This document shows, piece after piece, positions 1 through 34,746 of a stretch of 64,000 bases of DNA (position 1 is the first letter of the stretch; each line of letters opens with the position of its first letter). Position numbers and translations under genes: made by a program. The DNA is taken from NCBI GenBank assembly GCA_049968235.1, contig JBMFRC010000007.1, positions 1 to 64,000 on the forward strand. The letters are read 5' to 3'. The stretch is from Candidatus Hydrogenedens sp. (GTDB lineage: Bacteria > Hydrogenedentota > Hydrogenedentia > Hydrogenedentales > Hydrogenedentaceae). The notes beneath the pieces are model-generated. The model saw nothing but the letters and a program-made list of their open reading frames with translations. It did no database searches and was not told the origin of the DNA.

Positions 1-2
1 CA

Positions 3-443
3 AGCATTATAGCCAATCCCCAATTTCTAAGTCCTGAAAAAGATGACTATTGGATTAATATAGGGTCAATTGCATTAAAAAATCTAAATTTCCAACAAAT
101 ACCTATTAGTAAAATCGGATGTTATTACAATGAATTCCGTCGCTCCTGGCCCATCGAAAAACCAACCTCACAGAAATTAAGAAATCGCAAAGTCTGGACC
201 GTCAAAATCGTTGATAATGAATTACAAGTAACATCTGAAGAATTCAAACCTCTTATAACAGAAGAGACACAACAAGAATTCAATATAGAGAAATTCGTAG
301 CACCTATGTTGACGCCCGGCGGGGGCCCAATAGAACAAGCCCCCATATCCCCACCTGCAGAAATAACTACTCCACAGGGTGGAGGTATGGAAAGTGGTGG
401 ATTTGACCCGATGAAATCTTTACCTCCTTTTCCAAATCCATAG
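3..443 (+). CDS. 3' portion of a gene that starts upstream of the window; product unknown. C-terminal tail is Pro/Gly-rich and low-complexity (…PGGGPIEQAPISPPAEITTPQGGGMESGGFDPMKSLPPFPNP).
   Basis: I translated frame 3 by hand: 147 consecutive sense codons run from the window edge to the TAG at 441-443. That is improbable by chance in AT-rich DNA. The ORF is absent from the supplied track only because it has no in-window start codon. Confidence 0.4.
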   Translation, partial: SIIANPQFLSPEKDDYWINIGSIALKNLNFQQIPISKIGCYYNEFRRSWPIEKPTSQKLRNRKVWTVKIVDNELQVTSEEFKPLITEETQQEFNIEKFVAPMLTPGGGPIEQAPISPPAEITTPQGGGMESGGFDPMKSLPPFPNP

Positions 444-452
444 GTTTATGAT

Positions 453-1334
453 ATGACGATAAACCCTTTAATAAAAACAGTATATTATGACAGTGACAGG
501 CAAAAATCCGTCCTTCAAGTTCCTTTTGACCTAATTCGTGCTCGAGAAATACTCTGGGGGCTTGTTTGGCGTGAAATAAAAGCCCGCTATCGTTATGCAG
601 TATTAGGATTTTTATGGGCTATCATCGAACCTGTTACCTTAATGCTATTACTCCTTTTCGTGTTTTCTTTCGTTTTCAAACAACGCATTCCATCATCAGG
701 GAATTCCGAAATTCCAATGGCAACTCAAATTTTGTGTGGATTAATTTTCTGGCAATATTTTTCTTCTTCTGTATCGAGTGCAACATTATCTCTTATCAAC
801 CATCAAAATTTAGTTAAAAAAGTTTCTTTTCCTCGTGAAGTAATACCTCTCTCCTCTATTATTTACCCTATTGTAAATTTATCTATTGGTTTTATAACAT
901 TAATATCTATACATCTCCTATTACAAAAAACGATATCTCTACATATTTTTTGGATAGCAATTATTTTTCCTATTTTATTCATGTTTTCCGCTGGATGGGG
1001 CTTTATCCTTTCTGCTGGACATATACATTTTAGAGATATAGGAAACATGGTTAATGTAGGTTTAACTTTTGGTTTTTACGCTTCTCCTGTTTTTTATCCG
1101 TTAGAATGGGTCCGTCAAGCATGTGATAATCAATCACTTCCTCAATGGTTTTATTACCTGTATATTTTAAATCCCATGGTAGGAATACTAACCAATCTCC
1201 GGGAAAGCATTCTTTATGGGAAAACACCTCAATTCTCTTTTCTGATATACTCCGCAATAATCAGCATTATTTGTTTTCTTATTGGGATATACATTTTTAG
1301 AAGGCAATCTGCAACCTTTTCGGATTATTTATAA
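453..1334 (+). CDS. wzm: ABC-2 type polysaccharide/O-antigen export permease (Wzm-like)
   Basis: 293 aa with about 6 predicted TM helices. Lies directly upstream of, and abuts (1334/1335), an ABC ATPase. N-terminus has the typical RYR/YAVLG ABC-2 motif (WREIKARYRYAVLGFLW). Confidence 0.75.
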   Translation: MTINPLIKTVYYDSDRQKSVLQVPFDLIRAREILWGLVWREIKARYRYAVLGFLWAIIEPVTLMLLLLFVFSFVFKQRIPSSGNSEIPMATQILCGLIFWQYFSSSVSSATLSLINHQNLVKKVSFPREVIPLSSIIYPIVNLSIGFITLISIHLLLQKTISLHIFWIAIIFPILFMFSAGWGFILSAGHIHFRDIGNMVNVGLTFGFYASPVFYPLEWVRQACDNQSLPQWFYYLYILNPMVGILTNLRESILYGKTPQFSFLIYSAIISIICFLIGIYIFRRQSATFSDYL

Positions 1335-3455
1335 ATGATGAATGAACCTATTATAGAACTAAAAAACATTTCTAAAGAATATCCTATACGAAGGGGGTTT
1401 CGCGACCTCCGAGGACAGGGTGGTTTGTTGGACTGGATTCGGGGGAAAACAACAGAAAAATTCCGTGCCCTTGATAATATTAACTTTGATATTTATCGTG
1501 GAGAAACGGTTGGAATTATAGGGAAAAACGGTTCCGGTAAAAGTACTCTTTTAAAGATTATTGCTGGAGTTACAATCCCCACAGAAGGAAGAGTTCGCGT
1601 TTTTGGCAGAGTAGCATCATTATTAGAATTAGGTGCTGGATTTCATCCTTTACTTACAGGGAGAGAAAATATTTATCTCAATGCAGGTCTATTAGGGATG
1701 CGTAAAGCACAGGTTAATGAAGTCATTGAACAAATTATAGACTTTTCAGGTATACGTGAATTTATTGACCAGCCTGTTGATACATACAGTAGTGGTATGT
1801 ATGTTCGTATCGGTTTTGCAGTTGCCTCCTTTGTAAACCCGGATATATTTCTTGTGGATGAGGTATTGTCTGTAGGGGATGAAGAATTTCAACGCAAATG
1901 TCGTTATCGTATAGGGGAACTTCGGGAACAGGGAAAAACTATTGTTTTTGTATCCCATGACCTTGGCACTGTTAATGCTTTATGTAATCGTGTTTTTTTA
2001 CTTGACCATGGAAAATTAATAAACCGTGGTTCTGTATCAGCCACTATTGATTTTTATTTGAGACAGGTTGGTAGAGCAGAAGGAATACACACTATTTCAA
2101 ATGACAGGGAAAATCTTGAAGCCATTTTTAGTCATGGGAAAATCTCTTTGTTTTATTCCAAAAAAGAAATTACATCTCCACTAGGTATAGAAGGGATAGT
2201 TGTTCATCTTCATCAAATCCATAATTCATCTATGGGAGATTGGTCTGTTTTAGAGAGAGAAAAACAAACATTCGTTAGTAGTGGAACTTTATACCGTTTA
2301 CCATTACAATGGGAATGGAAAGCAACCGTAGAAAATAATTCACTTCTCTTATCACCTTCCTATAAATTGTTAAAAGAAATCCCTTTACAGGCATTAGAGT
2401 TTCGTATTTTTCTACCGGAGGTATATGACCATTTCTTTTATGCAGGTAATGAAGGTAAGTTTGCTCCTATTCTGCCCGGAAATTTAGGTTGGGTTCCTAT
2501 GGTCCCTCCTAAAATAGGTGAAAATTCTGCATTTTTACTATGTAATCATGCAGACTACCCTCTTTTGAAGATAGAGTTTGAATCCAGTGAACCCGGGATA
2601 TCTATTACAATAGGCAATACAGATTATATAGGACGTTCACGATTTATTAATTGTCATCTCCAGATTCCGGAAACAAGCAATCTTCAGAAATTCGGGACAC
2701 ATTCTATCGGCAACATTAAAATTTCCATCGCTACAAAAGAACACTATGAGTCATGGAAATCTTTATGGCTTCAACAAAGGACCATACATTTAAAACACAT
2801 CGAGATTCGATTAGGTGAGGGAAATATTGAATTTATAGATAAAAATACAATGAAACCTATTACTCAGGCGGTACATTTTCACACACAATTTCGTCTTCAG
2901 GGAATGTGGTTCCTGAGCCAGACATTTCTATGGAAAGCACCTTATAAAAAAGGCGATACATGGATAATGGAAGGGGAATCTCAACGCTTCCCTATTAAAT
3001 TAAAATGGGAGTTAACACCTGACCACCAGACCGATTGTCTTAATACTAAAATATGGTGCGAAACTATGGAAGAAATTGATTTAGACGAATACAATATTTC
3101 AGTAGGGTTGGTTTATATATATAATCAATGGGAAACAAGTTTGGAAAAGGGGCTTTTCCCGGAAATTTTACCTCAACAAACTGAATATCGACATTTAAAT
3201 AAAAATTACAACCCATCTCTTTATATAAAAGCACAGGGAGAATATTTGCCATCAATCTGTCTTTTCACTCATCAAGAAAACACCTTCCGGATGAGTGCTA
3301 TTAACCCTGAATACTCTTTAAGCGCAAGAATAATTCAGGCTATTGCCACTCCTGAACAAAAATCTATATTTCACTTAAATACAGGTACTCATTTTTTGTT
3401 TAATGGTGGTATTCAATTTCAAGTGAAAGAAAATATGAATCAGGATGTTAAATAA
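1335..3455 (+). CDS. wzt: ABC transporter ATP-binding protein (Wzt-like) with an approx. 450-aa C-terminal extension of unknown function
   Basis: Walker A GKNGSGKST. ABC signature YSSGMYVRIGFA. Walker B IFLVDEVLSVGD. H-loop SHD. N-terminal ABC domain is about 250 aa and the rest has no ATPase motifs. Confidence 0.85.
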   Translation: MMNEPIIELKNISKEYPIRRGFRDLRGQGGLLDWIRGKTTEKFRALDNINFDIYRGETVGIIGKNGSGKSTLLKIIAGVTIPTEGRVRVFGRVASLLELGAGFHPLLTGRENIYLNAGLLGMRKAQVNEVIEQIIDFSGIREFIDQPVDTYSSGMYVRIGFAVASFVNPDIFLVDEVLSVGDEEFQRKCRYRIGELREQGKTIVFVSHDLGTVNALCNRVFLLDHGKLINRGSVSATIDFYLRQVGRAEGIHTISNDRENLEAIFSHGKISLFYSKKEITSPLGIEGIVVHLHQIHNSSMGDWSVLEREKQTFVSSGTLYRLPLQWEWKATVENNSLLLSPSYKLLKEIPLQALEFRIFLPEVYDHFFYAGNEGKFAPILPGNLGWVPMVPPKIGENSAFLLCNHADYPLLKIEFESSEPGISITIGNTDYIGRSRFINCHLQIPETSNLQKFGTHSIGNIKISIATKEHYESWKSLWLQQRTIHLKHIEIRLGEGNIEFIDKNTMKPITQAVHFHTQFRLQGMWFLSQTFLWKAPYKKGDTWIMEGESQRFPIKLKWELTPDHQTDCLNTKIWCETMEEIDLDEYNISVGLVYIYNQWETSLEKGLFPEILPQQTEYRHLNKNYNPSLYIKAQGEYLPSICLFTHQENTFRMSAINPEYSLSARIIQAIATPEQKSIFHLNTGTHFLFNGGIQFQVKENMNQDVK

Positions 3456-4418
3456 ATGAATGAAATCAAAACTTCGGTAATTGTTCCTGCATATAATGAC
3501 CATAATAGGCTAATACACCTTCTTCATTCATTGGATTCATTAGAATACGAAAAACCGTATGAAGTTATTGTTATTGATGATGCTTCTACGGATGCAACAC
3601 CCGAAATATGCCAGAACTGGGCGAAACAATGGCATCTCTATGAATTCAGGTATTACCGTATGCCTGAGAACAGAGGTCCCGGCGTTGCTCGTAACACAGG
3701 ACTGGAAATATCTCGTGGAGATATTGTTGCATTCACAGATTCCGATTGCAGGGTTCATCCCCACTGGTTAAGCAGAATTACCTCTGCAATCAATATCGAG
3801 AAAAGAATCATTGGAGTAGGTGGTAGAGTAAAAGCAGTATCTGAAAAATCTATGTTTGCACGACATTTTTTATTTCATCGTGTATTAGAACCTCCCGAAA
3901 AACTTCACTATCTTGTTACCTGTAACTGTGCTTTCTTAAAAGCACCCTTGCTCGAAGCAGGTGGGTTCGCAGGTAATATACGTAATCCTGGTGGGGAAGA
4001 TATTTTCGCCAGTATTCACCTGTGGAAAAAAGGATGGCGTTTCTCTTTCCAACCCGATGCTATTGTATACCACGACTTTGATACTAATCTTCGTGCCTTC
4101 ATTAGAACATGGTATAACTATGGTTTCGGTTGTAGTATAGTAGTTCATCGTTGCTTGAACATAGATGAAATCTACCCGAATCCGGAACAAATGCCCGATT
4201 ATGAAAATTACTGGCCTGGCTATCTTATGCTTCCACCTATAACAGGTATCCGTAGCGGTATTCGTGATATGAAATATCAATGGAACAAATGTAGGCAAGA
4301 AAAACTATCCTACAAAAATACTTTTGAAATTCTGCTACTTACCCTTTTCCAGCGAATATCACACCTTTCCGGCTGGAAAGAAGGAAAAAAACAAGTTCAA
4401 AAAGACAACCCATCCTGA
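3456..4418 (+). CDS. Family 2 glycosyltransferase (GT-A fold)
   Basis: N-terminal VIVPAYN…VIVIDDASTDAT. DxD-like TDSD. Start abuts the wzt stop. Confidence 0.8.
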   Translation: MNEIKTSVIVPAYNDHNRLIHLLHSLDSLEYEKPYEVIVIDDASTDATPEICQNWAKQWHLYEFRYYRMPENRGPGVARNTGLEISRGDIVAFTDSDCRVHPHWLSRITSAINIEKRIIGVGGRVKAVSEKSMFARHFLFHRVLEPPEKLHYLVTCNCAFLKAPLLEAGGFAGNIRNPGGEDIFASIHLWKKGWRFSFQPDAIVYHDFDTNLRAFIRTWYNYGFGCSIVVHRCLNIDEIYPNPEQMPDYENYWPGYLMLPPITGIRSGIRDMKYQWNKCRQEKLSYKNTFEILLLTLFQRISHLSGWKEGKKQVQKDNPS

Positions 4419-4429
4419 CTTTACAATTA

Positions 4430-5641
4430 TTAAACCCTTCCAGTGCGGATATATAGCCATTCCTTCACTCGTTTTAAAGCAGAAGCAAAACCTTCTTTTT
4501 TAACTCGGTTCAGAAAGCGAACTGTTAATAAAATTGGATTTTTTGCACTCTTCTCCCCCCTTATTTTTAATTCTTTCCTGATATTTTCACTACGTTGACG
4601 AAGTTGTGAGGGACAATTGAGACAAATTTCAGGAATATTATTCTTTTTTTTCTGCAATTGCACCCTGATTGTGGTAAAAAAAGGACCCTTCCATATTTCA
4701 GATAAAGAAGAATCATGAACCGATGGATTGTCCTTATTCCAGAACATACAACAAGGACTGACTCTTCCATCAGCAGAAATGGTCATTGAGAGCATGGGTT
4801 CAAAACAATAAGTATCTACAAAATGGATAGTCTTTTCATTGTTTAAATCATCTTTATTCTCGCCCTCATCGGACCTATTGTTTATTCCTTCAAAACTTCC
4901 AAGAATAGAATCAAATGTATGATAAAGCCCTACACTTTCCGCTTTTGTTTTTGCAGATAAAAGTATCTCCTTGCATCTCTCTATTTCTTCCTTTTCCAAT
5001 ACAAATTTTTCCGCTTGTTTATTAAAAGGTTGTACCAATGTAGCATGAATACCTCCACAACCTGCCTCTAATGCCAAACTGACCATTTCTTCTAAATATA
5101 GATAGTTTGTATTTGTTATCGTGAAATTAATTCCCAAATCGGGAAGCAACTTACTCCTGTTCTGGCTAATATACTTCAAATTTTGAAATGCTTTATCAAA
5201 AGTTCCTTCCCCACGGATAAAATCGTTAACATCCGGATTAGGACCATCTATACTGAAAATTATCTGGTCCCATTTTAAAGAAATTAGTTTATCCAGTTGC
5301 TCTTTTTTAAATAAGGTTCCATTAGTATGCAGAACACAAAACATTCCATTCTGTTTGGCTAATTCTGCTAATTTTATTACAAGATTCCCGCGCACCATAG
5401 GTTCACCACCTCCCACAATATATAAATGTTTGGCTTCCATCGTGATGGAGTCCTGCAATAATTTCATCCACATCTCATCGGGTAATTCTTTTCCTACTGA
5501 CTTAAAATCATCCTCCCATTGCCAGCAGGTAAGGCATCGCTGATTGCACCGATTGGTAAGAAAAAAAACAATCTCATACAACGGGGATTGCCCTTCAACA
5601 CAATACTGCAATAGATTGGAACACTCCTTCTCGTAAGCCAT
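4430..5641 (-). CDS. Radical SAM enzyme with C-terminal SPASM/twitch-like Cys cluster
   Basis: CNQRCLTC (CxxxCxxC) near N-terminus. GGGEP glycine-rich SAM motif. C-terminal CCMFW…CLNCPS cysteine cluster. Confidence 0.8.
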   Translation of the reverse strand: MAYEKECSNLLQYCVEGQSPLYEIVFFLTNRCNQRCLTCWQWEDDFKSVGKELPDEMWMKLLQDSITMEAKHLYIVGGGEPMVRGNLVIKLAELAKQNGMFCVLHTNGTLFKKEQLDKLISLKWDQIIFSIDGPNPDVNDFIRGEGTFDKAFQNLKYISQNRSKLLPDLGINFTITNTNYLYLEEMVSLALEAGCGGIHATLVQPFNKQAEKFVLEKEEIERCKEILLSAKTKAESVGLYHTFDSILGSFEGINNRSDEGENKDDLNNEKTIHFVDTYCFEPMLSMTISADGRVSPCCMFWNKDNPSVHDSSLSEIWKGPFFTTIRVQLQKKKNNIPEICLNCPSQLRQRSENIRKELKIRGEKSAKNPILLTVRFLNRVKKEGFASALKRVKEWLYIRTGRV

Positions 5642-5751
5642 ATTTTCCTTTCTTTATTCACATAATATTCATCAATTTATATTACACTCTTATTCAATGG
5701 TATACTTTAATATATTATCACCACTATTTGCAGAATTGAATAATAAAAATT

Positions 5752-6816
5752 ATGACAGAAAATTTTTATAATTGGGAACAGATTACTATTTGTGCCACTT
5801 CTTGTTGTAATCTGCAATGCCGAATGTGTCCTGTTATTGTCCGTGACAAAAAAAGTCTTACACGGGAACAGGCATTGCATATCGCAGACTTTGCACTGCG
5901 TAACGAAGTAAAACGAGTTGTTATTGGAGGTGGAGAACCTACTCTATTACCCTATCTAAAAGAATTAATTGACAATCTCTCCCGAAATTCCATAGAAATT
6001 TGGATTCTAACAAATGCAACAAAATTGTCCGAGGAGGACATTCATTATTATGCAGAACATAAAAATGTAATTTTAAATATATCTATTGACGGTGTCGGTA
6101 AAGTTCATGACTACATTCGAGGAGAAGGAAATTTTGAAAGAACAAACAGAGTGTTTTTATCTTTAATAGAAAACGGTGCGAAGGTCGCAGTAAATACAGT
6201 TATTCAAAAAAGTAATTTCAACCATTCTATAGAAACATACGAATATTTCAAAAAGTACCCGCTTGTATGGCACGGTTTTTCTTTTGCAGAAACTTACCAC
6301 CAAAAGGAGTTAGTTCCTCTTGATAATTTGCCAGAAGCCCTAAATCAATTATATGAAATCCTTCAAAGAGATTCATTGGCGAATAAACATGTTTCATTAT
6401 CCCAGGAAATGATAAAAGGCTTTGAATTGAGTTTTCGTTACCCTGACCTTATCATGCATCCGGGAAAAAATTGTCCTATTCCTACTACTCATTTAGGTAT
6501 TGATGAAGAAGGATGGGTTCTTCCCTGCTGGCATTATCCATGGGTAAAAGATAAAAGCCGAAACATAAATAATAGGACCATAGACGAAATCATAGAAAAT
6601 CTGAATATAAAGAAAGAAATTTCTCATGCCATTGGTATTAATGGCTGTAAAGGATGTAGTACTGTATGCTATTTCTGGAATGAAAGGTTTAGAGATAAAG
6701 CAATGTATCCTAAGGGTAGATGGAAATGGCAAAGACGATGGATGTTAATAAAAATGATAACGCAAAATCGCTTTCCTCTTTTATATAATTTAGTCCGAAA
6801 AACAAAAATTTTTTAA
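5752..6816 (+). CDS. Radical SAM enzyme with C-terminal auxiliary Cys cluster (SPASM/twitch-like)
   Basis: CNLQCRMC (CxxxCxxC). IGGGEPTLLP. C-terminal CKGCSTVC. Divergently transcribed from the 4430-5641 radical SAM gene. Confidence 0.8.
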   Translation: MTENFYNWEQITICATSCCNLQCRMCPVIVRDKKSLTREQALHIADFALRNEVKRVVIGGGEPTLLPYLKELIDNLSRNSIEIWILTNATKLSEEDIHYYAEHKNVILNISIDGVGKVHDYIRGEGNFERTNRVFLSLIENGAKVAVNTVIQKSNFNHSIETYEYFKKYPLVWHGFSFAETYHQKELVPLDNLPEALNQLYEILQRDSLANKHVSLSQEMIKGFELSFRYPDLIMHPGKNCPIPTTHLGIDEEGWVLPCWHYPWVKDKSRNINNRTIDEIIENLNIKKEISHAIGINGCKGCSTVCYFWNERFRDKAMYPKGRWKWQRRWMLIKMITQNRFPLLYNLVRKTKIF

Positions 6817-6837
6817 AACATTAACATTATTATAGAT

Positions 6838-9189
6838 ATGGACGATTTAACATTGCATTCAGTAAAAATTTTTCCACCTACACGTGGATTTCTTTTCCAT
6901 ACCAATCATTATGATGAAATAATTCCCTTAGAAGACTTAAAAAAATGGGGGCGTATTCAATATGACCAATTCAAAGTAGAAAAAATTGATTTCTTCTCTG
7001 AGATTGACGATAATCTGAAAATACTGTCGGATTTAAGCAATTTTACAAAACAAGAATTTCAATGCAAAATATCCTGGGGAACAACCCTTTCTGAGCCTCC
7101 ACAAAATATTGAAATATTCAAAGAAGCTGGAATTTTAGACATTTTTCTGCTTATATCCAATCATACACAATCACAAATTTATACATGGATAAAAACATGT
7201 CAAAAATTAGATATACCTCTAAGAATATATTCTTCCATTTCCTATCTATTAGAGTTGAAACCATTTATAGAAATAGAATCTTTTAAATCTGTGGCATCGG
7301 TCGTTTTATTTGAAACATTTCCTTTCTCCAATAAATTCAAAAAATCAAACATACTTGCTAAGGAACAGATAAAAAAAATAAATGAACTCGTTCAGAAATT
7401 AATTCATTCACAAATTCCTTTGAGTATACTTGGAATACCCTTCTGCGTATTAGAATCTCTATATACTGCTTGTATTGTAAATTCTTCTCAGTTCTACGCA
7501 GATTCCGATTTTTACACACAACCTGCATTTGAATTTGCTCAAATGTTATGGAAATTCCGCACATACAAGATTCGCAAAATATTAGAAATGAAGTTGAGAG
7601 AAAAAATATCATTTCATAGCGGTATTGATAATATAGTCCTCCCCTGGATATTAAATCATCCCGCATTATACATTCCTCTCTGGGCATGGCATAAACTCAC
7701 ACGACACTTAAAATGGCGAAGAAATTATGAAACACTCCCCGAAAACACGAACCAGATAGAACAGCGGATAATTTACGAACAAAAAAAGAAAGAAAAGGAA
7801 TGGGGAATTTGTTCAAACTGTTATCTTAGATACATCTGTGATAAAGGAAATAATCCTTTTTGGGTATCACAGTTTGAACTTAAACCATCTTCGGGAAATC
7901 CCATTAGAAATCCTCTTTTCTTTCGTATTCATGCATTTCGATACTCCATGCAAACCGATTATGAAAAGCGTTCTCGATTCTCAACATTGGAACAACTTTA
8001 TGAAGAAGGTATTCAAATTACACTACATCATAAACCCTGGAAAGAAATTGCTCCTGAGGATTATGAGATTGAAAATCGAATGACCCATTATATGCCCGGA
8101 GCAGTCCGTTGGTTCTCTTTTAATTGTGGCGAATTACAAAGTACCCCTCTTTGTAAAACAGAACCACCCCTAACAATTTCTATCACTTTTGGAGGTGGTT
8201 TTGCAGAGCAAATCGGGTTTAGTTTCGGACCTCATATAAAAATTGTTTGTCCGATGATAGCCCAAAGTCATAAACTGACATTACATATAAATGAAAAAGG
8301 GCATTATATACTTATTCGAGATAAAGAAATTGTTTATCCTACAGAATTCTTTAATGCTTCATTAGTCCCACCAAGATTACCCCAGAAATTAGAGCCTCGT
8401 ATATCTATCTGGAATATTGATGGAGAAATTGTCACCCAGGGAATAACCTTATGGAAACCTGAAAAAGAGTCCGAGCAAATCAAAACAACTAAACCTAAAT
8501 TCTCCTTTTTATATGTTTGCTCTCGATATTCAAATCGTCTGCGGGCTTCTTTATTAAGCATTGCTCATCAAAAACAATTTGATTTAAATCAGATAGAAGT
8601 CGTTGTTGCTTATGTTCCTGATTTAGATGCCACTGATGATGTCCTTGACTGTTTTGAATCTACTTTCCCCAATATCAAAGTTGTTCGTTCTCCTTTCAGC
8701 CCAAGTTACTGGAAATCGAAAGGTTTCTTAATCAATGCTTCTTTGCCGTTATGCTCTGCTGATTGGACGATTTTAATTGATGCGGATATCATTCTTCATC
8801 CTGATTTTCTTTATACGATGGATAAAATTGAACCTGACATTTACTTCGTTGCTCCGGATGGCAGAAAAATGTTGACTCCGGAAATCACTTCCCAGATACT
8901 GTTAGGACTTATCCACCCATGGGAACAATTTAATACCCTACTTGAAGGACCCGGTGAATGGCGAAGAAGAGAGGCCGATGGGATTCCTATTGGATACTGC
9001 CAATGTTGTAGAAAAGAAGTCTTTCAAAAAATACAATATCCTGATTTTAACCATTTTGAAGGTGCGGATTGGTTTTTTGGAAGGTCTGTCGTGGAAATGT
9101 TCGGACCTGAACATCGTTTAATAGGCGTTCCCGTCCTTCATCTTGACCACGGTGGTAGCCAATGGTATGGTTCACAAAAACATCGCTAA
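6838..9189 (+). CDS. 783-aa multidomain protein. The N-terminal region lacks the radical-SAM Cys triad but has a SPASM-like CSNCYLRYIC segment. The C-terminal approx. 220 aa is GT2-like (GT-A, DAD motif).
   Basis: C-terminal FSFLYVCSRYSN…VVVAYVPDLDATDD…ILIDADIILHPDF resembles a GT-A glycosyltransferase. No CxxxCxxC anywhere in the protein. Confidence 0.45.
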   Translation: MDDLTLHSVKIFPPTRGFLFHTNHYDEIIPLEDLKKWGRIQYDQFKVEKIDFFSEIDDNLKILSDLSNFTKQEFQCKISWGTTLSEPPQNIEIFKEAGILDIFLLISNHTQSQIYTWIKTCQKLDIPLRIYSSISYLLELKPFIEIESFKSVASVVLFETFPFSNKFKKSNILAKEQIKKINELVQKLIHSQIPLSILGIPFCVLESLYTACIVNSSQFYADSDFYTQPAFEFAQMLWKFRTYKIRKILEMKLREKISFHSGIDNIVLPWILNHPALYIPLWAWHKLTRHLKWRRNYETLPENTNQIEQRIIYEQKKKEKEWGICSNCYLRYICDKGNNPFWVSQFELKPSSGNPIRNPLFFRIHAFRYSMQTDYEKRSRFSTLEQLYEEGIQITLHHKPWKEIAPEDYEIENRMTHYMPGAVRWFSFNCGELQSTPLCKTEPPLTISITFGGGFAEQIGFSFGPHIKIVCPMIAQSHKLTLHINEKGHYILIRDKEIVYPTEFFNASLVPPRLPQKLEPRISIWNIDGEIVTQGITLWKPEKESEQIKTTKPKFSFLYVCSRYSNRLRASLLSIAHQKQFDLNQIEVVVAYVPDLDATDDVLDCFESTFPNIKVVRSPFSPSYWKSKGFLINASLPLCSADWTILIDADIILHPDFLYTMDKIEPDIYFVAPDGRKMLTPEITSQILLGLIHPWEQFNTLLEGPGEWRRREADGIPIGYCQCCRKEVFQKIQYPDFNHFEGADWFFGRSVVEMFGPEHRLIGVPVLHLDHGGSQWYGSQKHR

Positions 9190-9213
9190 TAAACATTATC
9201 GGATTATCAACAA

Positions 9214-10479
9214 ATGAAAATCTGTTTCATTGATTTACTATTTAACTGGCCTCCTCGTGGTGGAGCTGATGTTGATGTTTTTAATGTCATGAAACAACTC
9301 TCTAAAAACAATCATGAAGTATTACTTCTTTCAATCTCTTCTTTTATGCAAAATAGGGGAATGTTTAAGACAGATTCCTTACCATTCCCTGCAAAAAAAA
9401 TTACAGTAGATTTTTCCGATAATCATTCTTTTGACATCCTTAAAAATTTCTTACTTTCATCAGTATCCCATCATCAACCCGACTGGATTATTATAGGAGA
9501 TTGTTTTTTTCTAAAACCTGTCATTACTTTATTCTTTGATAATACTCCTTTTCCTATAATCTGGCGACAATATGCATACGAACTTCTCTGTCAAAAAGAT
9601 ATTCTAAAATTTTTAAATAACAAACCCTGTCCTCTGGATTACCTTTCTGCACAATACATCTGCCAAAAATGTGGGCTATACCATCAAAAAGAAAAATTAT
9701 TGAAATTTGAAATAAACGTATGGATAGAAGAATACTTACTCACTAAAGCCTACAAATCAAATTATTCAGAAATATTATCAAATGCCCTCAAAAAGGTTCA
9801 AAAAATTATCGTATCTTCTGATACAATGGCAAATACATGGAAATGTTACCATCCCGAAATACTTATTTTTCCGGGGGGAATAGATACAGAACATTTTCAC
9901 ATAGAAAAAAACAAAAATAATGTAACAAAAAAAATCTTCATGTCTGGCAGAATTGAGGACACCGCAAAAGGTTTTCATGTCTTATATAGAGCATGTGAAA
10001 AATTAAGAAAGAAAAGAAACGATTTTGAACTCTTTTGCACCGGAGGTTGGAAATTTGGATTTCCAGATTGGATAAAATTTTTAGGATGGCTCGACTATGA
10101 AGAATTACCCCATGTTTATTCTGAAATGGACATTTGTGTTGTTCCCAGTATCTGGGAAGAACCCTTTGGAATTGTCGCATTAGAAGCCATGGCTACAGGG
10201 AGTCCTGTTATAGCAAGTAATATCGGAGGATTAAGGACAACGATTCTTCATGGAGAAACAGGTTTTTTATTTCCACCTAATGACGACGAAACTCTAATGA
10301 ACTATCTTGACCTACTCTTATCAAATGATACCCTCAGAAATGAAATGGGAAATAAAGCACAATCACATGTTCTCAATAATTACAGTTGGGGAAGTATTAT
10401 CACAAATTACTACGAAAAAGAGTTGATGAAACAGAATACCTTTTTAATCAATACACAACGGGATACATCCATTGGATAA
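9214..10479 (+). CDS. GT4-family glycosyltransferase (paralog 1)
   Basis: C-terminal EPFGIVALEAMATGSPVIAS (GT4 EX7E-type motif). Unusual N-terminus NWPPRGGADVDVFN. Confidence 0.8.
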   Translation: MKICFIDLLFNWPPRGGADVDVFNVMKQLSKNNHEVLLLSISSFMQNRGMFKTDSLPFPAKKITVDFSDNHSFDILKNFLLSSVSHHQPDWIIIGDCFFLKPVITLFFDNTPFPIIWRQYAYELLCQKDILKFLNNKPCPLDYLSAQYICQKCGLYHQKEKLLKFEINVWIEEYLLTKAYKSNYSEILSNALKKVQKIIVSSDTMANTWKCYHPEILIFPGGIDTEHFHIEKNKNNVTKKIFMSGRIEDTAKGFHVLYRACEKLRKKRNDFELFCTGGWKFGFPDWIKFLGWLDYEELPHVYSEMDICVVPSIWEEPFGIVALEAMATGSPVIASNIGGLRTTILHGETGFLFPPNDDETLMNYLDLLLSNDTLRNEMGNKAQSHVLNNYSWGSIITNYYEKELMKQNTFLINTQRDTSIG

Positions 10480-11737
10480 AATTCCAAAAATTATATTTAT
10501 TGATTTCAATTTTTCCTGGCCCCCGAATGGTGGTGCTGATATAGATACTTTTAATATATTAAAACTTTTTGCAGAAAGAGATTCTGATATTTTGTTTATA
10601 GGAATTGCCGAAGAACACTCTTCGGATAGAGGTAATTTTGACCCTCAACAATTACCTTTCCCATCTGTTCGCATTTCGATACCTTCTTCAAATTGGAATG
10701 TCAATATCATTTCAGAAAAAGTGTGTCGCCTTATACAAAAATATAAACCTTCTTTAATTTTTTTACAGCATGGTTATTTAATAAAGATACCCATTAGTAA
10801 AAACATAAAAGCAGTTTTCTCCGATATTCCGATTATTTCTAGAACTTTTGCTCATGAATTGTTTTGTCTTAGAAGTCCTTTACGATTTAAAGATAATAAA
10901 CATTGTCCTAAAAATATCTTCAAGACACCCGATTATTGCCTCCAATGTTCCTTAGAAGGCTTAAAAAAAGAACTATTATCGGGAATGTATAATACATGGA
11001 CAAAAGACTACATCCAGAGTAAAAGTTTTTCTTGGTCTTTTCTTAAATCATACTTACATATAGTCAAAAAGTGGAAAAAAGTTATTGTTTATAATAAAGA
11101 CCTCCAAACAGAATTATTAGAACAAGGTATTGATACAGTTGTAATCCCCGGTGGTATTGAAAAAGAATATATTACTGGGCAACCGGCATTCAAAAATAAT
11201 CAAACTCAAGAAAAAATAATTTTCATGGCAGGCAGGTGTGATGACCCATCTAAAGGAATGGGTGTACTATATGAAGCGGGAAATATTCTTTATCAGAAAA
11301 GAAAAGATTTTAAGATATATGTAACTTCATTCAATCTTAAACTCTATAATGACTGGTTTCTACCTTTAGGATGGCTCTCTCGTGAAGAACTATTTAATAT
11401 ATACAGACAATCCGATATATGTGTTATTCCCAGTCATTGGGCTGAACCCTTTGGAATAACCGCCTTAGAAGCAATGGCTTTAGGAAAAGCAGTTATTGCC
11501 AGTAAGATTGGCGGACTAAAAGAAACTATATTGGATAATCAAAATGGTCTTTTATTTGAACCTGGCAATCCACTCGAATTATCGGAAAAATTAAACTTAC
11601 TCCTTAACAATCCTCAAATCAAAATGACTTTAGGAAAAAATGCTCGAAAATCGGTGTTAGAAAATTACATATGGGATATAATCATTGATAAATACTATCT
11701 ACCTCTTATTGAAGATGTATTGTCAAAGGAGAAATAA
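10472..11737 (+). CDS. GT4-family glycosyltransferase (paralog 2; tandem duplicate of the upstream gene)
   Basis: EPFGITALEAMALGKAVIAS. N-terminus SWPPNGGADIDTFN parallels paralog 1. Overlaps paralog 1 by 8 nt. Confidence 0.8.
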   Translation: MDKIPKIIFIDFNFSWPPNGGADIDTFNILKLFAERDSDILFIGIAEEHSSDRGNFDPQQLPFPSVRISIPSSNWNVNIISEKVCRLIQKYKPSLIFLQHGYLIKIPISKNIKAVFSDIPIISRTFAHELFCLRSPLRFKDNKHCPKNIFKTPDYCLQCSLEGLKKELLSGMYNTWTKDYIQSKSFSWSFLKSYLHIVKKWKKVIVYNKDLQTELLEQGIDTVVIPGGIEKEYITGQPAFKNNQTQEKIIFMAGRCDDPSKGMGVLYEAGNILYQKRKDFKIYVTSFNLKLYNDWFLPLGWLSREELFNIYRQSDICVIPSHWAEPFGITALEAMALGKAVIASKIGGLKETILDNQNGLLFEPGNPLELSEKLNLLLNNPQIKMTLGKNARKSVLENYIWDIIIDKYYLPLIEDVLSKEK

Positions 11738-11743
11738 TAAATT

Positions 11744-12220
11744 ATGAAAGTTGGCTTATTTTATAGTTATGGTCCCCATTTCTTGAAAGCGATACATTTT
11801 CTTGTTGAACAATTTCCTGAGGATAATATTATTTTATTCATTCCGGAAGATTTCCCTTCTTATTACTTTGAGAAACTTCCTGTATCTATTGTACCCTTAC
11901 CGTGGAGTGGACAGCATATCCCCTTATTAAAAGGAATAAAAATATTTCTGAATATCATAAAAATAATTCGCTCCCAACGATTAGACCAGTTCACGGTACT
12001 ATTCGAAAGTCCTCGTCAAATTATGTTATGTAAATTATCCGGTGCTAAACATTCCTTCGTATATTCAATACATAAAGAATTTAAGCCCATCTCTCAGGGT
12101 TTCTTTCAATCTTTGACACGCATCTTAATTGCCCGTTTCAAGGGTTTATGCCTGTATTCATATATACTTCTCCATGTATCCCTTTGTAAACAACAGAAAA
12201 AGAAGCATTATCATTCTTGA
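11744..12220 (+). CDS. Hypothetical protein (158 aa); could be a degenerate glycosyltransferase fragment
   Basis: ORF immediately downstream of the GT4 pair. No recognisable motifs. Confidence 0.3.
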   Translation: MKVGLFYSYGPHFLKAIHFLVEQFPEDNIILFIPEDFPSYYFEKLPVSIVPLPWSGQHIPLLKGIKIFLNIIKIIRSQRLDQFTVLFESPRQIMLCKLSGAKHSFVYSIHKEFKPISQGFFQSLTRILIARFKGLCLYSYILLHVSLCKQQKKKHYHS

Positions 12221-12355
12221 TGAAACTATCTCCTTATCATTGAAGTCATTACATAAATTCCATTTTTCATAATTACTTCAATTAAAGTATAATGTTAACA
12301 TGGGATTATAAGTATCCTTACCAACAAAAAACTATAAATTCTGGAGGAATATATC

Positions 12356-13417
12356 ATGTGTTCTTTAAAACAAAAATTTTTGTTTCTTTTTTTATTCACT
12401 GCAATTATTATGTTCGTTACATCTGCTATAGCAGATGAAGATGATGATTTAGTAATGGGTAATTATCAGGGAACTATTTCAGGGAAAAACTGGGATGGTA
12501 AAAGTCTCAGGGCTCAAGTTGTAGCCCAAGGAGGTGGCAGGTATCGTTGTGTATTGCTCTATACTCAGGGTTCTGACCCCGAACAAAGGGCAGAGATTAA
12601 AGGAATAAAAGCACCTTCCGGACCCGCAGGGATTATGGAACAGGATAAAGAAAAAGCCAAAAGAATGGCAGAAATCAATTTTGATGGCGAAGTAGATTTT
12701 AAAGGCAACTTCGGAGGTAAAGGGAAAGTAACAGGACAAATTAAAAATGAGGTATTTATAGGCACTATCGAACAGGGGAAAGAAAAAGCAAAATTTGAAA
12801 TGAAACGAGTATTTTTACAACCACCCACTTTAGGACAAAAACCCCCTGAAGGTGCTATTGTCCTTATGGATGGTAAAAGTCTGGATATGTGGGATTTAAA
12901 ACCTCACTGGCAATTGGTTGAAGACGGTTCCGCACGTACTGTAGCCACAAGTTTATGTACAAAAGAAGAATATGGAGATGGGTTATACCATGTCGAGTTT
13001 ATGTGTCCTTTTATGCCCAATGAAACAGGTCAGGCAAGAGGAAATAGTGGCGTTTATGTTTTTGGAAGATATGAGGTTCAGGTATTAGATAGTTTTGGTG
13101 ATTTGCCGGCGGATAATCTTTGCGGAGGTATTTATAAATCTGCTACACCAAAAGTCTGTGCATCTCTTCCCCCATTACAATGGCAAACCTATGATATTAC
13201 TTTCACAGCTCCAAAATATGATGAAAATGGCAAAAAAATTAAGAATGCCTTTATCACCGTATATCACAATGGCATTCTTATTCATGACAATGTAGAACTA
13301 AAAGGACCGACCCCGGGAGGTGTAAGCGATCAGGAAGCACCCAAAGGCGTTTTAATGCTTCAAGACCACGGGGATGCTGTTCGTTATAGAAACATCTGGT
13401 ACAAACCAGCAAATTAA
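12356..13417 (+). CDS. Secreted protein with C-terminal DUF1080 (3-keto-disaccharide hydrolase-like, concanavalin-type) domain
   Basis: Signal peptide (MCSLKQKFLFLFLFTAIIMFVTSAIA). C-terminal LMLQDHGDAVRYRNIWYKP is the characteristic DUF1080 end motif. GGAGG RBS 8 nt upstream. Confidence 0.55.
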   Translation: MCSLKQKFLFLFLFTAIIMFVTSAIADEDDDLVMGNYQGTISGKNWDGKSLRAQVVAQGGGRYRCVLLYTQGSDPEQRAEIKGIKAPSGPAGIMEQDKEKAKRMAEINFDGEVDFKGNFGGKGKVTGQIKNEVFIGTIEQGKEKAKFEMKRVFLQPPTLGQKPPEGAIVLMDGKSLDMWDLKPHWQLVEDGSARTVATSLCTKEEYGDGLYHVEFMCPFMPNETGQARGNSGVYVFGRYEVQVLDSFGDLPADNLCGGIYKSATPKVCASLPPLQWQTYDITFTAPKYDENGKKIKNAFITVYHNGILIHDNVELKGPTPGGVSDQEAPKGVLMLQDHGDAVRYRNIWYKPAN

Positions 13418-13471
13418 TACTATAGATTAGTATAAAATAAATATTAGAAAGAGGTAAGAAGGAGTATTGTC

Positions 13472-14200
13472 TTGTTTTCTTTTTCCCTGATAATTCCCAC
13501 ATATAACGAAAAAGAAGAGATTGAAACAACATTACAATATACCCTTGACTATTTCCAAAAACAATCTTATTCTTTTGAGATAGTCATTGCAGATGATGGG
13601 AGTATAGATAATACCGTTCAACTCGCACAAAAGTGGGCAGAACAATATAAAGGGATAGTAAGAGTCATTGCATTCCCTCAAAATCGGGGAAAAGGAAGTG
13701 TTGTTAAAGAAGCCATGTTACACCACACAAATGGGAATATTCGTTGTTTTTACGATGCAGATGCTTCTACCCCAATTGAAGAAGTAGAAAAACTTATCCG
13801 TGAAATTAACAATGGATACGATATAGCTATTGCCTCAAGGGCTTTACCTGATTCTATCATTGAAATTCCTCAACCATTCTATCGTCAAACAATGGGTAAA
13901 ATCTATAATCTCATACTTCGTCTCTTCTGTCTCACCCATTTTAAGGATACTCAGTGTGGTTGTAAATGTTTTAATGAAAAATCTATAAGTATTGTTTTTC
14001 CAAGGCAAACACTAAAGCGATTCAGTTTTGATGCTGAAATACTTTTCATTGCTGAAAAACATGGACTAAAAATTAAAGAAGTCCCCACACGCTGGAGAAA
14101 TCGAAAAGAGTCACGTGTCCATCCAATAAAAGACTCATCTAAAATGTTTTGTGACCTTTTCAAAATTCGTTGGAATGCTTTCATAGGAAAGTACAAATAA
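13472..14200 (+). CDS. GT2 polyprenyl-phosphate glycosyltransferase (Dpm1/ArnC/GtrB-like)
   Basis: SLIIPTYNE…VIADDGSIDNT. DAD motif. 242 aa soluble GT-A. Start codon uncertain; the track uses TTG. Confidence 0.75.
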   Translation: MFSFSLIIPTYNEKEEIETTLQYTLDYFQKQSYSFEIVIADDGSIDNTVQLAQKWAEQYKGIVRVIAFPQNRGKGSVVKEAMLHHTNGNIRCFYDADASTPIEEVEKLIREINNGYDIAIASRALPDSIIEIPQPFYRQTMGKIYNLILRLFCLTHFKDTQCGCKCFNEKSISIVFPRQTLKRFSFDAEILFIAEKHGLKIKEVPTRWRNRKESRVHPIKDSSKMFCDLFKIRWNAFIGKYK

Positions 14201-14236
14201 AAAGTGAGAGGGAATTCTTTAAATCCCTCTCACTTT
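14201..14236. terminator. Bidirectional rho-independent terminator between convergent genes
   Basis: Perfect 12-bp inverted repeat aaagtgagaggg / ccctctcacttt with an 11-nt loop. Flanked by A-run upstream and T-run downstream. Confidence 0.7.
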
Positions 14237-14257
14237 ATTATCTAAAAGCAACCGAAA

Positions 14258-16228
14258 CTACGCCTTTGCTTCGGTTTTAGAGTTATCAGGTGCTTCTGCA
14301 GGTATAGGAAGGTTCTTTTCATAATCACGATATTTCGGTGGTAAACCTTCATATACATCGAATTCTAACCAGCGGTATTTCCCTTCTAATAATTTATCAC
14401 CAACTTTCCGATACATATAATTGTGATTCTTCTTAACAGCCTTGAAGTTGTTCTCAATTCTCTGACGTGCATTCTTACAGAACAAATCCGCTAAATCTTG
14501 TGGCGAATCATCATTGGGATTCTGGTTCATTAAATACTCCGCATAGGACAAACAGGAAGCCATCACAAATAGGTCAACACCAATATCCACATAATTCCCC
14601 AGAATTAACTGTTCATTCTCTAATTTCGGACCATACTTAGCCATTGTATGGAATATGCTACGAGCAAGTCTCTTACATGTCTTCGCTGTGTATTTCAGAT
14701 GGTCTCTATTTGTAGAATTTAATTTTTTCACATTGAAATTCGTGGATGAAGGCATCCATAATTTCGGATACCACTTTATATAAAATTTCAACGCATTCCA
14801 TATTAATTTAACCATGCTTTGACCTTTTTGAGGCTTCATTATCGGCATCACCAAACTGAAGTGAGTATCTAATGCTTCACGAGCCATAATTAAATGCATA
14901 ATCTCGGATGAACCTTCAAAAATTCTACCTATACGCATATCGCGCATAACACGCTCAACAAAGAATGGCCTTTCACCACGATTATAAAGGGATTCTGCCA
15001 TTTCATACCCTCTACCACCTAATATCTGAAGTAAGTCATCCATACCCTTCCAACCGAACTCTGTAGCAAAATATTTTGATGCCGCAGCCTCTAATCGAAT
15101 ATCCGCATTCTTCTTATCAGCAAAAGAACATGTAATAAATACCATAGCCTGTGTTGCAAATGTAGTTGCGGCGAAATCAGCAATTTTCTTTGCAATTTCT
15201 TGATGTTGTCCTATCGGTCTGCCCCATTGAACACGATTCTTAGCCCACCATTCCGCATCTTCAAGGGATCTCTTTGCTGCACCGACACCTGCGGATGGGA
15301 CACCTAAACGACCCGTATTTAATGTAGTAAGAGCTATTTTCAACCCCATACCCGGCTTGCCAATAATATTTTCTGTAGGCACTTTCACATTATTAAATCT
15401 CAACATACCGTTGGAAAGCCCTTTAAGACCCATAAATTTGCAACGGGTAACAACTTCAACACCAGGCCAACTTGTTTCAACAATAAACGCTGTGATTTGA
15501 GGAATTTCACGACCATTCTTTATTTTCGGTGGAGTTTTAGCCATCACAACAATTACATCCGCATCCGGACCATTGGTTGTCCATAACTTAACTCCATTCA
15601 GAAGATAATAAGAACCGTCAGGAGAAGGAGTGGCTGTAGTTTTCATTTGTGCCGGATCTGAACCTACTTCCGGTTCCGTTAATGCAAAGGCAGAAATTTC
15701 ACCTTTTGCTACACGAGGTAAATACTTCTTTTTCTGCTCCTCTGTGCCGAAGATCCGTAAAGGTTCCGGAACACCAATACTTTGATGTGCAGAAAGCCAT
15801 GTAATTGTACTTTGGCAATAACTTCCAATAAATGATAATACACGAGCGTAATTTGTAACCGATAAACCTAAACCTCCATATTCCGGTTTTATTTTCATTC
15901 CAAACAAACCCATCTCCTTCATCTTTTCTAACGCTTCTTTGGGATAGACACCTGTTTTATCTATCTCAACCGGGTCAACATACTTATCCAGAAAATCCTT
16001 GATTTTTGCTATTAATTCATCGCCGATTTTCTTGTCTTCTTCCGACTGAGCCGGATAGGGATGTAGTAAATCCCAGCGGAAATTACCACGGAACATTTCA
16101 GCGGTGAAACTGGGAAACTTCCATTCTGTTTCACGCGCCTCTTCAGCGAGTTCCATTGCTGCATCTTTTGCTTTTAAATCCTCTTTTGTAGCCATAGGTC
16201 TTACCCTCATCTTGGTTAAGATTTTCAA
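14258..16228 (-). CDS. Long acyl-CoA dehydrogenase (656 aa) with C-terminal extension
   Basis: ACAD core motifs (…LWTTNGPDADVIVVMAKT…, …GGRGY…). Extra approx. 250 aa C-terminal region. Confidence 0.85.
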   Translation of the reverse strand: MKILTKMRVRPMATKEDLKAKDAAMELAEEARETEWKFPSFTAEMFRGNFRWDLLHPYPAQSEEDKKIGDELIAKIKDFLDKYVDPVEIDKTGVYPKEALEKMKEMGLFGMKIKPEYGGLGLSVTNYARVLSFIGSYCQSTITWLSAHQSIGVPEPLRIFGTEEQKKKYLPRVAKGEISAFALTEPEVGSDPAQMKTTATPSPDGSYYLLNGVKLWTTNGPDADVIVVMAKTPPKIKNGREIPQITAFIVETSWPGVEVVTRCKFMGLKGLSNGMLRFNNVKVPTENIIGKPGMGLKIALTTLNTGRLGVPSAGVGAAKRSLEDAEWWAKNRVQWGRPIGQHQEIAKKIADFAATTFATQAMVFITCSFADKKNADIRLEAAASKYFATEFGWKGMDDLLQILGGRGYEMAESLYNRGERPFFVERVMRDMRIGRIFEGSSEIMHLIMAREALDTHFSLVMPIMKPQKGQSMVKLIWNALKFYIKWYPKLWMPSSTNFNVKKLNSTNRDHLKYTAKTCKRLARSIFHTMAKYGPKLENEQLILGNYVDIGVDLFVMASCLSYAEYLMNQNPNDDSPQDLADLFCKNARQRIENNFKAVKKNHNYMYRKVGDKLLEGKYRWLEFDVYEGLPPKYRDYEKNLPIPAEAPDNSKTEAKA

Positions 16229-16636
16229 TTGTTTATATACTTAATGATAAGTAAATAATAATTTACCACCATTTATACACAATTGTCAAAATGAAATTCA
16301 ACTAATCTTTGAAATATGTTAAACTCAATATCAAAATTTTTCATTATATCTTATTTAGCGAAACAAAATTAGTCTACTCAGCCTTTCAAAAAAATATCTA
16401 CTTTTACTAAACAATATCTATTTTTTTCTCACTTATATAAAACTTATATGAAAATGTAAATATAAAATTTTAAACCTTCGTATTTATCAATAGATATAAT
16501 ACATAGAATTCATATAACATCACAAGATGAATACATGATTAAAAATATGTTAAAATATTTCGTCATCCTTGGACTGGAAATGAATTTGGTCAAATCACTA
16601 AATAATATCAACTTAAAATTTTAGAAGGAGTTTATT

Positions 16637-34161: not shown

Positions 34162-34163
34162 CT

Positions 34164-34745: not shown

Positions 34746-34746
34746 A

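Follow-up and report, generated by a model that had tools for sequence, protein, structure and literature searches.

Why should genes for radical S-adenosylmethionine (radical-SAM) enzymes lie within a locus for the export of a polysaccharide? The question is raised by a 64,000-nucleotide stretch of DNA from Candidatus Hydrogenedens sp. (contig JBMFRC010000007.1, positions 1 to 64,000; hereafter the window), in which two radical-SAM genes, rSAM-A and rSAM-B, and the gene for a large protein, P6, are found together. All open reading frames (ORFs) listed in an initial annotation of this DNA were present at the coordinates it gave, and its placement of the three genes between wzm/wzt and a series of glycosyltransferase genes agreed with Pfam, which identified the flanking genes as wzm, wzt, GT2, GT4, GT4, and GT2. 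The best reading of this locus, and one that we hold with modest confidence, is that the radical-SAM enzymes carry out a radical tailoring of a sugar in a glycan exported by Wzm/Wzt. Pathways for aminoglycoside and nucleoside antibiotics include radical-SAM enzymes with carbohydrate substrates; we know of no description of radical-SAM tailoring of cell surface polysaccharides exported by ATP-binding cassette (ABC) transporters.

The genes for rSAM-A (4430 to 5641, minus strand; 403 aa) and rSAM-B (5752 to 6816, plus strand; 354 aa) are arranged head to head with a spacer of 110 bp. In rSAM-A, the motif CNQRCLTC occupies residues 32 to 39 (CxxxCxxC at positions 5525 to 5548) and GGEP lies at residue 78; in rSAM-B, CNLQCRMC was found at residues 19 to 26 (5806 to 5829) and GGEP at residue 60. 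Both proteins scored above the Pfam gathering threshold of 29.5 bits for Radical_SAM (PF04055; 81.5 bits and 1e-22 for rSAM-A, 70.6 bits and 2.3e-19 for rSAM-B), and CxxxCxxC and GGEP were invariant in the alignments of both families. These features place both proteins in the radical-SAM superfamily, and they are predicted to be catalytically competent. Every NCBIfam match of the two fell far under its curated cutoff, such that no curated family was reached.

The full SPASM motif contains seven cysteines (CX9-15GX4C ... CX2CX5CX3C ... C) and was found in neither protein. The SPASM domain is Cys-rich and C-terminal and holds two auxiliary clusters (PMC9012708). rSAM-A passed the Pfam SPASM model (PF13186; 46.7 bits against 21.5; 3.9e-12) with four conserved cysteines, C279, C297, C340, and C343 (within 4613 to 4807), spaced as C279-x17-C297 ... 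C340-x2-C343, which can also be written CX12GX4C ... CX2C. Across its family, C32, C36, C39, C279, C340, and C343 were invariant and C297 was conserved at 90% or more. rSAM-B scored 18.9 bits, under the gathering score of 21.5, and its family has five invariant C-terminal cysteines, C241-x17-C259 ... C299-x2-C302-x3-C306 (within 6472 to 6669). The two patterns are therefore best described as Twitch-like, with one predicted auxiliary cluster, rather than as full SPASM. The initial annotation had proposed two divergent radical-SAM enzymes with SPASM-type auxiliary cysteines; both genes are indeed intact and divergent and the cysteines are there, but the term SPASM was too strong for a Twitch-type arrangement.

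For rSAM-A, the Twitch assignment could be made more specific. The rSAM-A profile matched BtrN, the Twitch-domain dehydrogenase of butirosin biosynthesis (PDB 4M7S/4M7T), with an E value of 1.5e-13, the match being restricted to the Twitch region. BtrN was the only solved structure that matched the auxiliary region of rSAM-A, and C279, C297, C340, and C343 aligned with four cysteines of the BtrN Twitch region, as expected of a BtrN-type Twitch domain. rSAM-B has the same spacing as rSAM-A, yet a direct alignment to BtrN was not obtained. The closest solved relatives also included BlsE, a radical-SAM enzyme that decarboxylates a sugar nucleoside. The earlier generalization that SPASM enzymes normally act on peptides proved too narrow, as BtrN, MoaA, and BlsE use small molecules (PMC9012708).

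P6 (6838 to 9189, plus strand; 783 aa) matches, at 100% identity, a hypothetical protein from a metagenome-assembled genome (MAG) of Candidatus Hydrogenedens. Its AlphaFold model (pLDDT 80) has six beta/alpha units in residues 16 to 198, is helical to residue ∼400, all-beta from 400 to 540, and of the GT-A fold from 555 to 780. Three parts can thus be delimited: a pseudo-radical-SAM domain made up of a partial TIM barrel and a helical region (residues 1 to 400; 6838 to 8037), an all-beta domain recognized from the secondary structure of the model and its many invariant residues (∼401 to 545; 8038 to 8472), and a GT-A glycosyltransferase domain identified by PF00535/PF13641 and Foldseek (∼555 to 783; 8500 to 9189). 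PF00535 scored 22.5 bits, just under its threshold of 23.3, and PF00535 and/or PF13641 were recorded for most of the homologues listed. The DxD motif (D648/D650; 8779 to 8787) was invariant in all 88 sequences compared, HLDHGGSQWYG close to the C terminus is an invariant segment, and Foldseek matched the GT-A domain to GlfT2, K4CP, SpsA, and others with E values of 1e-13 to 1e-8. Fold and DxD together assign the domain to GT-A/GT2, and the transferase is predicted to be intact and active. The all-beta domain is the most conserved part of the family, and the Foldseek alignment of P6 with GlfT2 (422 to 442 columns) extends beyond the GT-A domain alone.

The N-terminal part of P6 lacks both CxxxCxxC and GGEP and has CSNCYLRYIC at residues 325 to 334. 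Motifs, DxD, and Foldseek therefore agree with the initial annotation, in which P6 had lost the catalytic triad, retained CSNCYLRYIC, and ended in a GT-A domain. Foldseek with the whole of P6 was discarded as a test of the N terminus, being swamped by GT-A matches, and the N-terminal domain was modeled separately. The fold alone is suggestive of radical-SAM ancestry; the stronger evidence for a pseudo-radical-SAM domain came from sequence profiles. When a hidden Markov model (HMM) of the P6 N terminus was searched against 1.8 billion representative proteins, the P6 family itself was recovered first, followed by matches with E values of 1e-15 to 1e-6, and PF04055 was present in 10 of the 10 of these that were tested.

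The closest relationship was found to a radical-SAM family of 420 to 440 aa from Hydrogenedentota, here named rsam440, the gene for which lies directly upstream of P6 in many related loci and is absent from this window. An 18-sequence alignment of rsam440 matched the P6 N-terminal alignment over 382 columns (hhalign probability, 99.6%; E value, 8e-23). In this comparison, P6 has a deletion where rsam440 has the loop TCNqRCYFC, GGEPT is replaced, and the PLC/PFC cysteine and the CxxCx5CD motif line up. The radical-SAM likeness of the P6 N terminus noted in the initial annotation is accordingly now backed by homology. rSAM-A and rSAM-B were rejected as its paralogues, as their profile-profile comparison was not significant (probability, ∼1%), and rsam440 is identified from the profiles as the true paralogue. 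Since homology and the four C-terminal cysteines are present and the CxxxCxxC and GGEP motifs are deleted or replaced, the P6 N terminus is predicted to be a paralogue and not a functional member of rsam440. A scan of P6 residues 1 to 400 against NCBIfam at an E value of ≤0.1 gave HxsC as its sole match (0.037) and identified no pseudo-radical-SAM family. When named relatives of rsam440 were sought by scanning eight remote radical-SAM matches against NCBIfam, none of the eight reached a curated cutoff.

The four cysteines of P6 are C203, C325, C328, and C334 (7444 to 7446, 7810 to 7812, 7819 to 7821, and 7837 to 7839), and their equivalents are conserved in rsam440. All four were present in 85 of 88 family members from species-representative genomes. 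In a wider metagenomic set, 5 of 30 P6 sequences lacked two or more of them, and three of these five (P0018, P0019, and P0021) also lacked the PFC cysteine and kept only the middle one. The pattern suggests that the domain has lost SAM chemistry and kept an auxiliary metal site, either an iron-sulfur cluster or zinc; binding of an iron-sulfur cluster by the four cysteines seems plausible. Between the first and second of these cysteines, residues 263 to 290 (7624 to 7707) form a highly conserved motif rich in hydrophobic and basic residues, IDxxVLPWILxHPxLYxPxWAxHKLTRHL, in which D264, K286, and R289 are invariant. It was modeled at low confidence, has no clear counterpart in rsam440, and may be a membrane-association or interaction segment.

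To what extent the association holds beyond the window was assessed by comparing genomes. Relatives of P6 were sought in one genome per species (185,579 species); 112 relatives were found, and 80 loci were retrieved. By taxon label, 56 of these 80 were Hydrogenedentota, Hydrogenedentes, or Hydrogenedens and 14 were uncultured Nitrospirales or Nitrospiraceae; P6 is thus found mainly in Hydrogenedentota. One locus with a Nitrospirales/Nitrospiraceae label (L013) showed full synteny with the window arrangement, here termed type I, at 67% identity, and its label is for that reason probably wrong. A census was then restricted to the 79 loci in which a P6 ORF of ≥600 aa was found. A radical-SAM gene lay within 4 kb of P6 in 26 of them; by family, 17 were rsam440, 8 rSAM-A-like, and 7 rSAM-B, and 1 also had a B12-type gene. 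A Wzt of at least 600 aa was encoded in 23 of the 79 loci, wzm lay within 9 kb of P6 in 19, and P6 was followed by a GT4 gene in 30. Tandem copies of P6 occurred in 13 loci, including L034, L035, L036, L038, L045, L053, L057, L061, L072 to L074, and L085. Some genomes also had a second P6 locus elsewhere.

The window layout is kept in a genus-level group (L001 and L011 to L016), and each of these type I relatives has rSAM-A and rSAM-B head to head. Outside the genus group, L091 carries rSAM-B, P6, GT4, GT4, and p158 (a small gene described below), in L008 a B12-radical-SAM gene and rSAM-B accompany wzm and the gene for a 714-aa Wzt, which shares 35% identity with the window Wzt over its full length, and in L092 two rSAM-B paralogues come after wzm, wzt, and GT2. 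Three distinct radical-SAM families thus recur beside one common core of transferases and exporter, a pattern that is not explained by chance adjacency. The initial view that the radical-SAM genes belong to the glycan locus is therefore strengthened, with three families recurring beside P6 and wzm/long wzt across the phylum. In addition, the findings that the initial annotation had named as refuting its view were not obtained: neither enzyme fell into a named housekeeping clade, all NCBIfam scores being far below cutoff, and the arrangement was conserved in related genomes.

The exporter begins the block. wzm (453 to 1334, plus strand) encodes an ABC-2 permease (PF01061 ABC2_membrane, 1.6e-13), for which the best NCBIfam match was Wzm/RfbD, under cutoff. 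It is followed by a long wzt (1335 to 3455, plus strand; 706 aa), encoding an ABC ATPase (ABC_tran, 1.3e-22) with a C-terminal extension and with TagH/Wzt-like matches in NCBIfam. The C-terminal 456 aa (2085 to 3455) comprise two tandem modules of ∼225 aa that are related to each other (internal BLASTP E value, 5e-6), and no Pfam or NCBIfam family, including Wzt_C, was matched by them. The window Wzt is 35 to 43% identical over its full length to those of L006 and L008, in which the C-terminal modules are conserved. Permease and ATPase of a Wzm/Wzt pathway are therefore both present, and the C-terminal part of Wzt matches no known carbohydrate-binding family.

Under the favored reading, P6, a cytoplasmic core enzyme that is large and possibly polymerizing, would build a glycan in the cytoplasm together with the GT4 and GT2 transferases, and Wzm and the long Wzt, with its two extra C-terminal modules, would export it. 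rSAM-A and rSAM-B would be tailoring enzymes of this pathway, each cleaving SAM to a 5′-deoxyadenosyl radical that takes hydrogen from a sugar carbon in a nucleotide-sugar precursor or lipid-linked chain. Their auxiliary clusters could accept or return the second electron, as proposed for BtrN (PMC9012708), and the product could be a keto (oxidized), epimerized, or otherwise rearranged sugar. Family resemblance and gene context point to a sugar as the substrate and to this type of radical chemistry. The pseudo-radical-SAM domain of P6 would most likely bind the same substrate or dock an active radical-SAM partner, which in other members of the phylum could be the paralogue rsam440 encoded directly upstream. 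A bolder version, which we put forward only tentatively, is that the pseudo-domain holds a [4Fe-4S] cluster and forms a physical complex with an active radical-SAM enzyme, so that modification of the sugar is coupled to polymerization. The partner would be rsam440 in most of the phylum and rSAM-A and rSAM-B in the genus Hydrogenedens, and the modules of the long Wzt may then read the modified sugar.

Several observations weigh against sugar tailoring. In approximately two-thirds of the P6 loci, the 4 kb around P6 holds no radical-SAM gene, which means that P6 can function where no partner is encoded beside it. The locus has no priming phosphoglycosyltransferase and no nucleotide-sugar pathway genes that would point to the sugars of the glycan. 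Over the radical-SAM core, the most similar solved structures were peptide-modifying enzymes such as SkfB and PqqE, and the NCBIfam matches of all three radical-SAM families lie far below cutoff. Distant relatives of rSAM-A (∼30% identity) occur outside glycan loci, in radical-SAM arrays or beside a polyprenyl synthase gene, and the broader rSAM-A clade is not tied to glycans. Lastly, literature searches covering O-antigen, capsule, and Hydrogenedentes found no earlier case of a Wzm/Wzt pathway with radical-SAM tailoring. The same searches did not find a fusion of a radical-SAM domain with a glycosyltransferase, and one match from the Xanthomonas literature was unrelated. One such array was seen in an Aenigmarchaeota MAG (L009, 1 to 16933), where 15 or more radical-SAM/SPASM genes (337 to 385 aa) follow one another in the same orientation; they are distant relatives of rSAM-A at ∼30% identity, and a 67-aa ORF lies within the array.

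The alternative that survives best, although we consider it unlikely, is that rSAM-A and rSAM-B are protein maturases, similar to anaerobic sulfatase-maturating enzymes (anSMEs) or to those of metalloenzymes or tungsten-cofactor enzymes, and modify a residue of a partner protein instead of the glycan. A sulfatase, P6 itself, or another protein of the locus could be the target. rSAM-B aligned over its full length with the anSME 4k36 (residues 18 to 356 against 12 to 371; E value, 2.8e-12) and matched TIGR03942 over residues 16 to 303, but with 57.9 bits against a cutoff of 349, and its five C-terminal cysteines are fewer than a two-cluster SPASM domain needs. As there was also no sulfatase among the window ORFs scanned, identity with anSME was rejected. 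For rSAM-A, the best NCBIfam match was a maturase of a tungsten-cofactor oxidoreductase, and TIGR03942 was absent among the 25 family matches listed. In L091, a Cys-type sulfatase gene with a CSPSR motif (6914 to 8278) follows the P6-GT4-GT4-p158 block, and in L092 a sulfatase-superfamily gene (6834 to 8447) adjoins rSAM-B in the slot held by rSAM-A in the window, although its product has no C/SxPxR motif. It is because of these two loci that a maturase role was retained as a less likely alternative; the genes found consistently together across loci are those for P6, Wzm/Wzt, and GT4, not those for sulfatases.

That the radical-SAM enzymes act on the lipid part, either the polyprenyl carrier or the lipid anchor of the glycan, instead of on its sugar appears improbable. 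Distant relatives of rSAM-A are found with polyprenyl synthase and B12-radical-SAM genes in L010, and an archaeal tetraether synthase was among the weaker PDB and NCBIfam matches. However, relatives of the L010 type share only ∼30% identity, and the matches span the generic radical-SAM core. In its Twitch domain, rSAM-A shows a specific match to BtrN. The locus is followed closely, but on the opposite strand, by genes for an acyl-CoA dehydrogenase, an AMP-binding enzyme, and a MaoC dehydratase. These fatty acid genes flank the type I loci for which downstream sequence exists (L001, L011 to L014, and L016), and within the 79-locus census no locus classed as type II has an adjacent acyl-CoA dehydrogenase gene.

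The initial annotation had offered as a second possibility a glycosylated product resembling a ribosomally synthesized and posttranslationally modified peptide (RiPP), whereby the radical-SAM enzymes would cross-link a precursor, the transferases would glycosylate it, and the ABC system would export it. Many RiPP maturases belong to the SPASM/Twitch subfamily, and the closest solved structures included SkfB, PqqE, SuiB, and CteB; the best named match of the GT2a transferase was the mycofactocin glycosyltransferase MftF (135 bits against a cutoff of 280), and the GT4 proteins weakly matched TIGR04157, a family of transferases that belongs to a radical-SAM peptide system of Bacteroidales. With gaps of 11 to 135 bp in the block and every small ORF overlapping a large gene, so that no DNA is free for a precursor gene, with an exporter of the Wzm/TagH-Wzt (polysaccharide and teichoic acid) type, and with no conserved precursor among the small ORFs of the compared loci, such a product is very improbable. 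The latter search, an all-against-all comparison of 956 small ORFs that overlap no large gene, drawn from 85 loci and the window's first 20 kb, extended the earlier failure to find a precursor ORF of 60 aa or more near the radical-SAM genes; it returned one sizeable conserved sense-strand family, a small protein that looks Trm112-like and is encoded in five loci, none of which has a radical-SAM gene within 4 kb of P6. The catalytic motifs begin at residue 32 in rSAM-A and residue 19 in rSAM-B, too close to the N terminus for a RiPP recognition element (RRE) to precede them, as judged from motif positions with no RRE model run; the RRE domain is missing from some RiPP maturases.

Two small ORFs of L008 touch on the same subject. 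Both lie beside the radical-SAM genes, are 54 and 55 aa long, and looked precursor-like. The 54-aa ORF was rejected as a precursor peptide, since it proved to be a duplicate of the 5′ part of wzm in which about the first 37 residues of Wzm are repeated. It bounds a segment (6096 to 10068) that carries the B12-radical-SAM gene and an rSAM-B homologue upstream of wzm; the segment has the look of an insertion by which the 5′ end of wzm was duplicated.

The remaining genes of the block (453 to 14200) are all co-directional on the plus strand, rSAM-A being the one inverted gene. GT2a (3456 to 4418; PF00535, 7.9e-33) lies between wzt and rSAM-A and occurs in type I loci and in those classed as type III. 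Downstream of P6 are two GT4 genes, GT4a (9214 to 10479; PF00534, 4e-35) and GT4b (10472 to 11737; PF00534, 2.2e-28), the second of which is kept in type I and many type II loci. They are followed by p158 (11744 to 12220; 158 aa), which had no Pfam or NCBIfam match; its homologues are 150 to 160 aa long and are placed after the GT4 genes in 21 of the 79 P6 loci. Inspection by eye suggested a Rossmann-like N terminus and a hydrophobic C-terminal helix. A gene for a DUF1080/3-keto-disaccharide hydrolase family protein (12356 to 13417; PF06439, 5.7e-38) is confined to type I and syntenic in L001, L011 to L014, and L016. GT2b (13472 to 14200; PF00535, 4.4e-26) is the last gene of the co-directional block, which is closed by the convergent acyl-CoA dehydrogenase gene. 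A consensus scan of positions 1 to 16700 gave 77 promoter-like sites (66 ± 8 expected) and 14 terminator-like sites (11 ± 4 expected), both at background, and was uninformative on operon structure.

Upstream of wzm, positions 1 to 441 hold the 3′ end of a gene, and synteny with L001 places an 838-aa beta-helix protein directly upstream of wzm. The L001 protein had weak Beta_helix/NosD matches, and the gene ending here may be part of the same glycan system. Further along the window, a 1,598-aa protein with four PASTA domains and GLUG motifs (25283 to 30079, minus strand) is encoded next to the genes for ribosomal proteins S9 and L13 and a pilM/pilO/secretin cluster (31657 to 37404).

The locus represents a conserved link, mainly within one phylum, between radical-SAM enzymes and a glycosyltransferase that appears to have absorbed a dead paralogue of such an enzyme while keeping its auxiliary cysteines. 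It also gives three uncharacterized radical-SAM families a defined, testable context. If the proposed coupling is true, it would bring new sugar chemistry to envelope glycans, provide a clear example of a pseudoenzyme domain recruited into a transferase, and supply an envelope marker gene for Hydrogenedentota, a phylum of which we know no cultured representative. Should P6 indeed act in complex with a radical-SAM enzyme, polysaccharide pathways of the Wzm/Wzt type would gain their first step that depends on radical SAM, and the envelope glycan would be phylum specific. Carbohydrate-acting Twitch enzymes were already known, as were pseudo-radical-SAM partners, the latter from Bacteroidales peptide systems (PMC10352776).

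How, then, does the locus compare with these and other characterized systems? BtrN is a Twitch enzyme that oxidizes an aminocyclitol, a sugar-like substrate, and has a single auxiliary cluster with four Cys ligands (PMC9012708). rSAM-A shares with it the auxiliary pattern C-x17-C ... C-x2-C, in which the four cysteines align, and a short N terminus that would leave no room for a peptide-binding domain. It differs in length (403 aa against about 250 to 270), having a long insert between core and Twitch domain and a C-terminal tail, in that the match covers the Twitch region only, and in its genomic context, which is one of polysaccharide export and not of an aminoglycoside cluster. rSAM-B differs from anSME (4K36; TIGR03942) in its five C-terminal cysteines, too few for two auxiliary clusters (PMC9012708), in a score far under the cutoff, and in having no sulfatase among the scanned window ORFs.

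Pseudo-radical-SAM proteins of Bacteroidales (IPR026418) and haloarchaea (TIGR04347) are thought to partner an active enzyme (PMC10352776). In these systems, a noncatalytic paralogue is encoded beside an active radical-SAM enzyme and sometimes a glycosyltransferase, and the same concept would apply to P6. P6 matched neither TIGR04150/IPR026418 nor TIGR04347 at an E value of ≤0.1, and its domain is derived from the rsam440 family. Unlike the known examples, it is fused to a glycosyltransferase and accompanied by a Wzm/Wzt exporter, with no precursor peptide.

For P6 as a whole, the best structural match of the model was GlfT2 (PDB 4FIX; Foldseek E value, 7e-13; 422 columns). GlfT2 is the polymerizing galactofuranosyltransferase of mycobacterial galactan, which is exported through a Wzm/Wzt-type transporter, and has a beta-domain ahead of its GT-A domain. 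P6 shares this layout of beta-sandwich and GT-A, at an identity of 10 to 12% and with TM-scores that are low because the domains are placed differently. It adds the 400-aa pseudo-radical-SAM domain, and its locus has no UDP-galactopyranose mutase gene. In Wzm/Wzt systems of the Escherichia coli O9a type, the C-terminal domain of Wzt reads a cap at the chain end. The window likewise encodes an ABC-2 permease and an ATPase with a C-terminal extension together with transferases, but here the extension comprises 456 aa in two tandem modules that belong to no known family. Furthermore, the window locus encodes neither a terminator kinase nor a methyltransferase, and the radical-SAM enzymes are its sole candidate modifiers.

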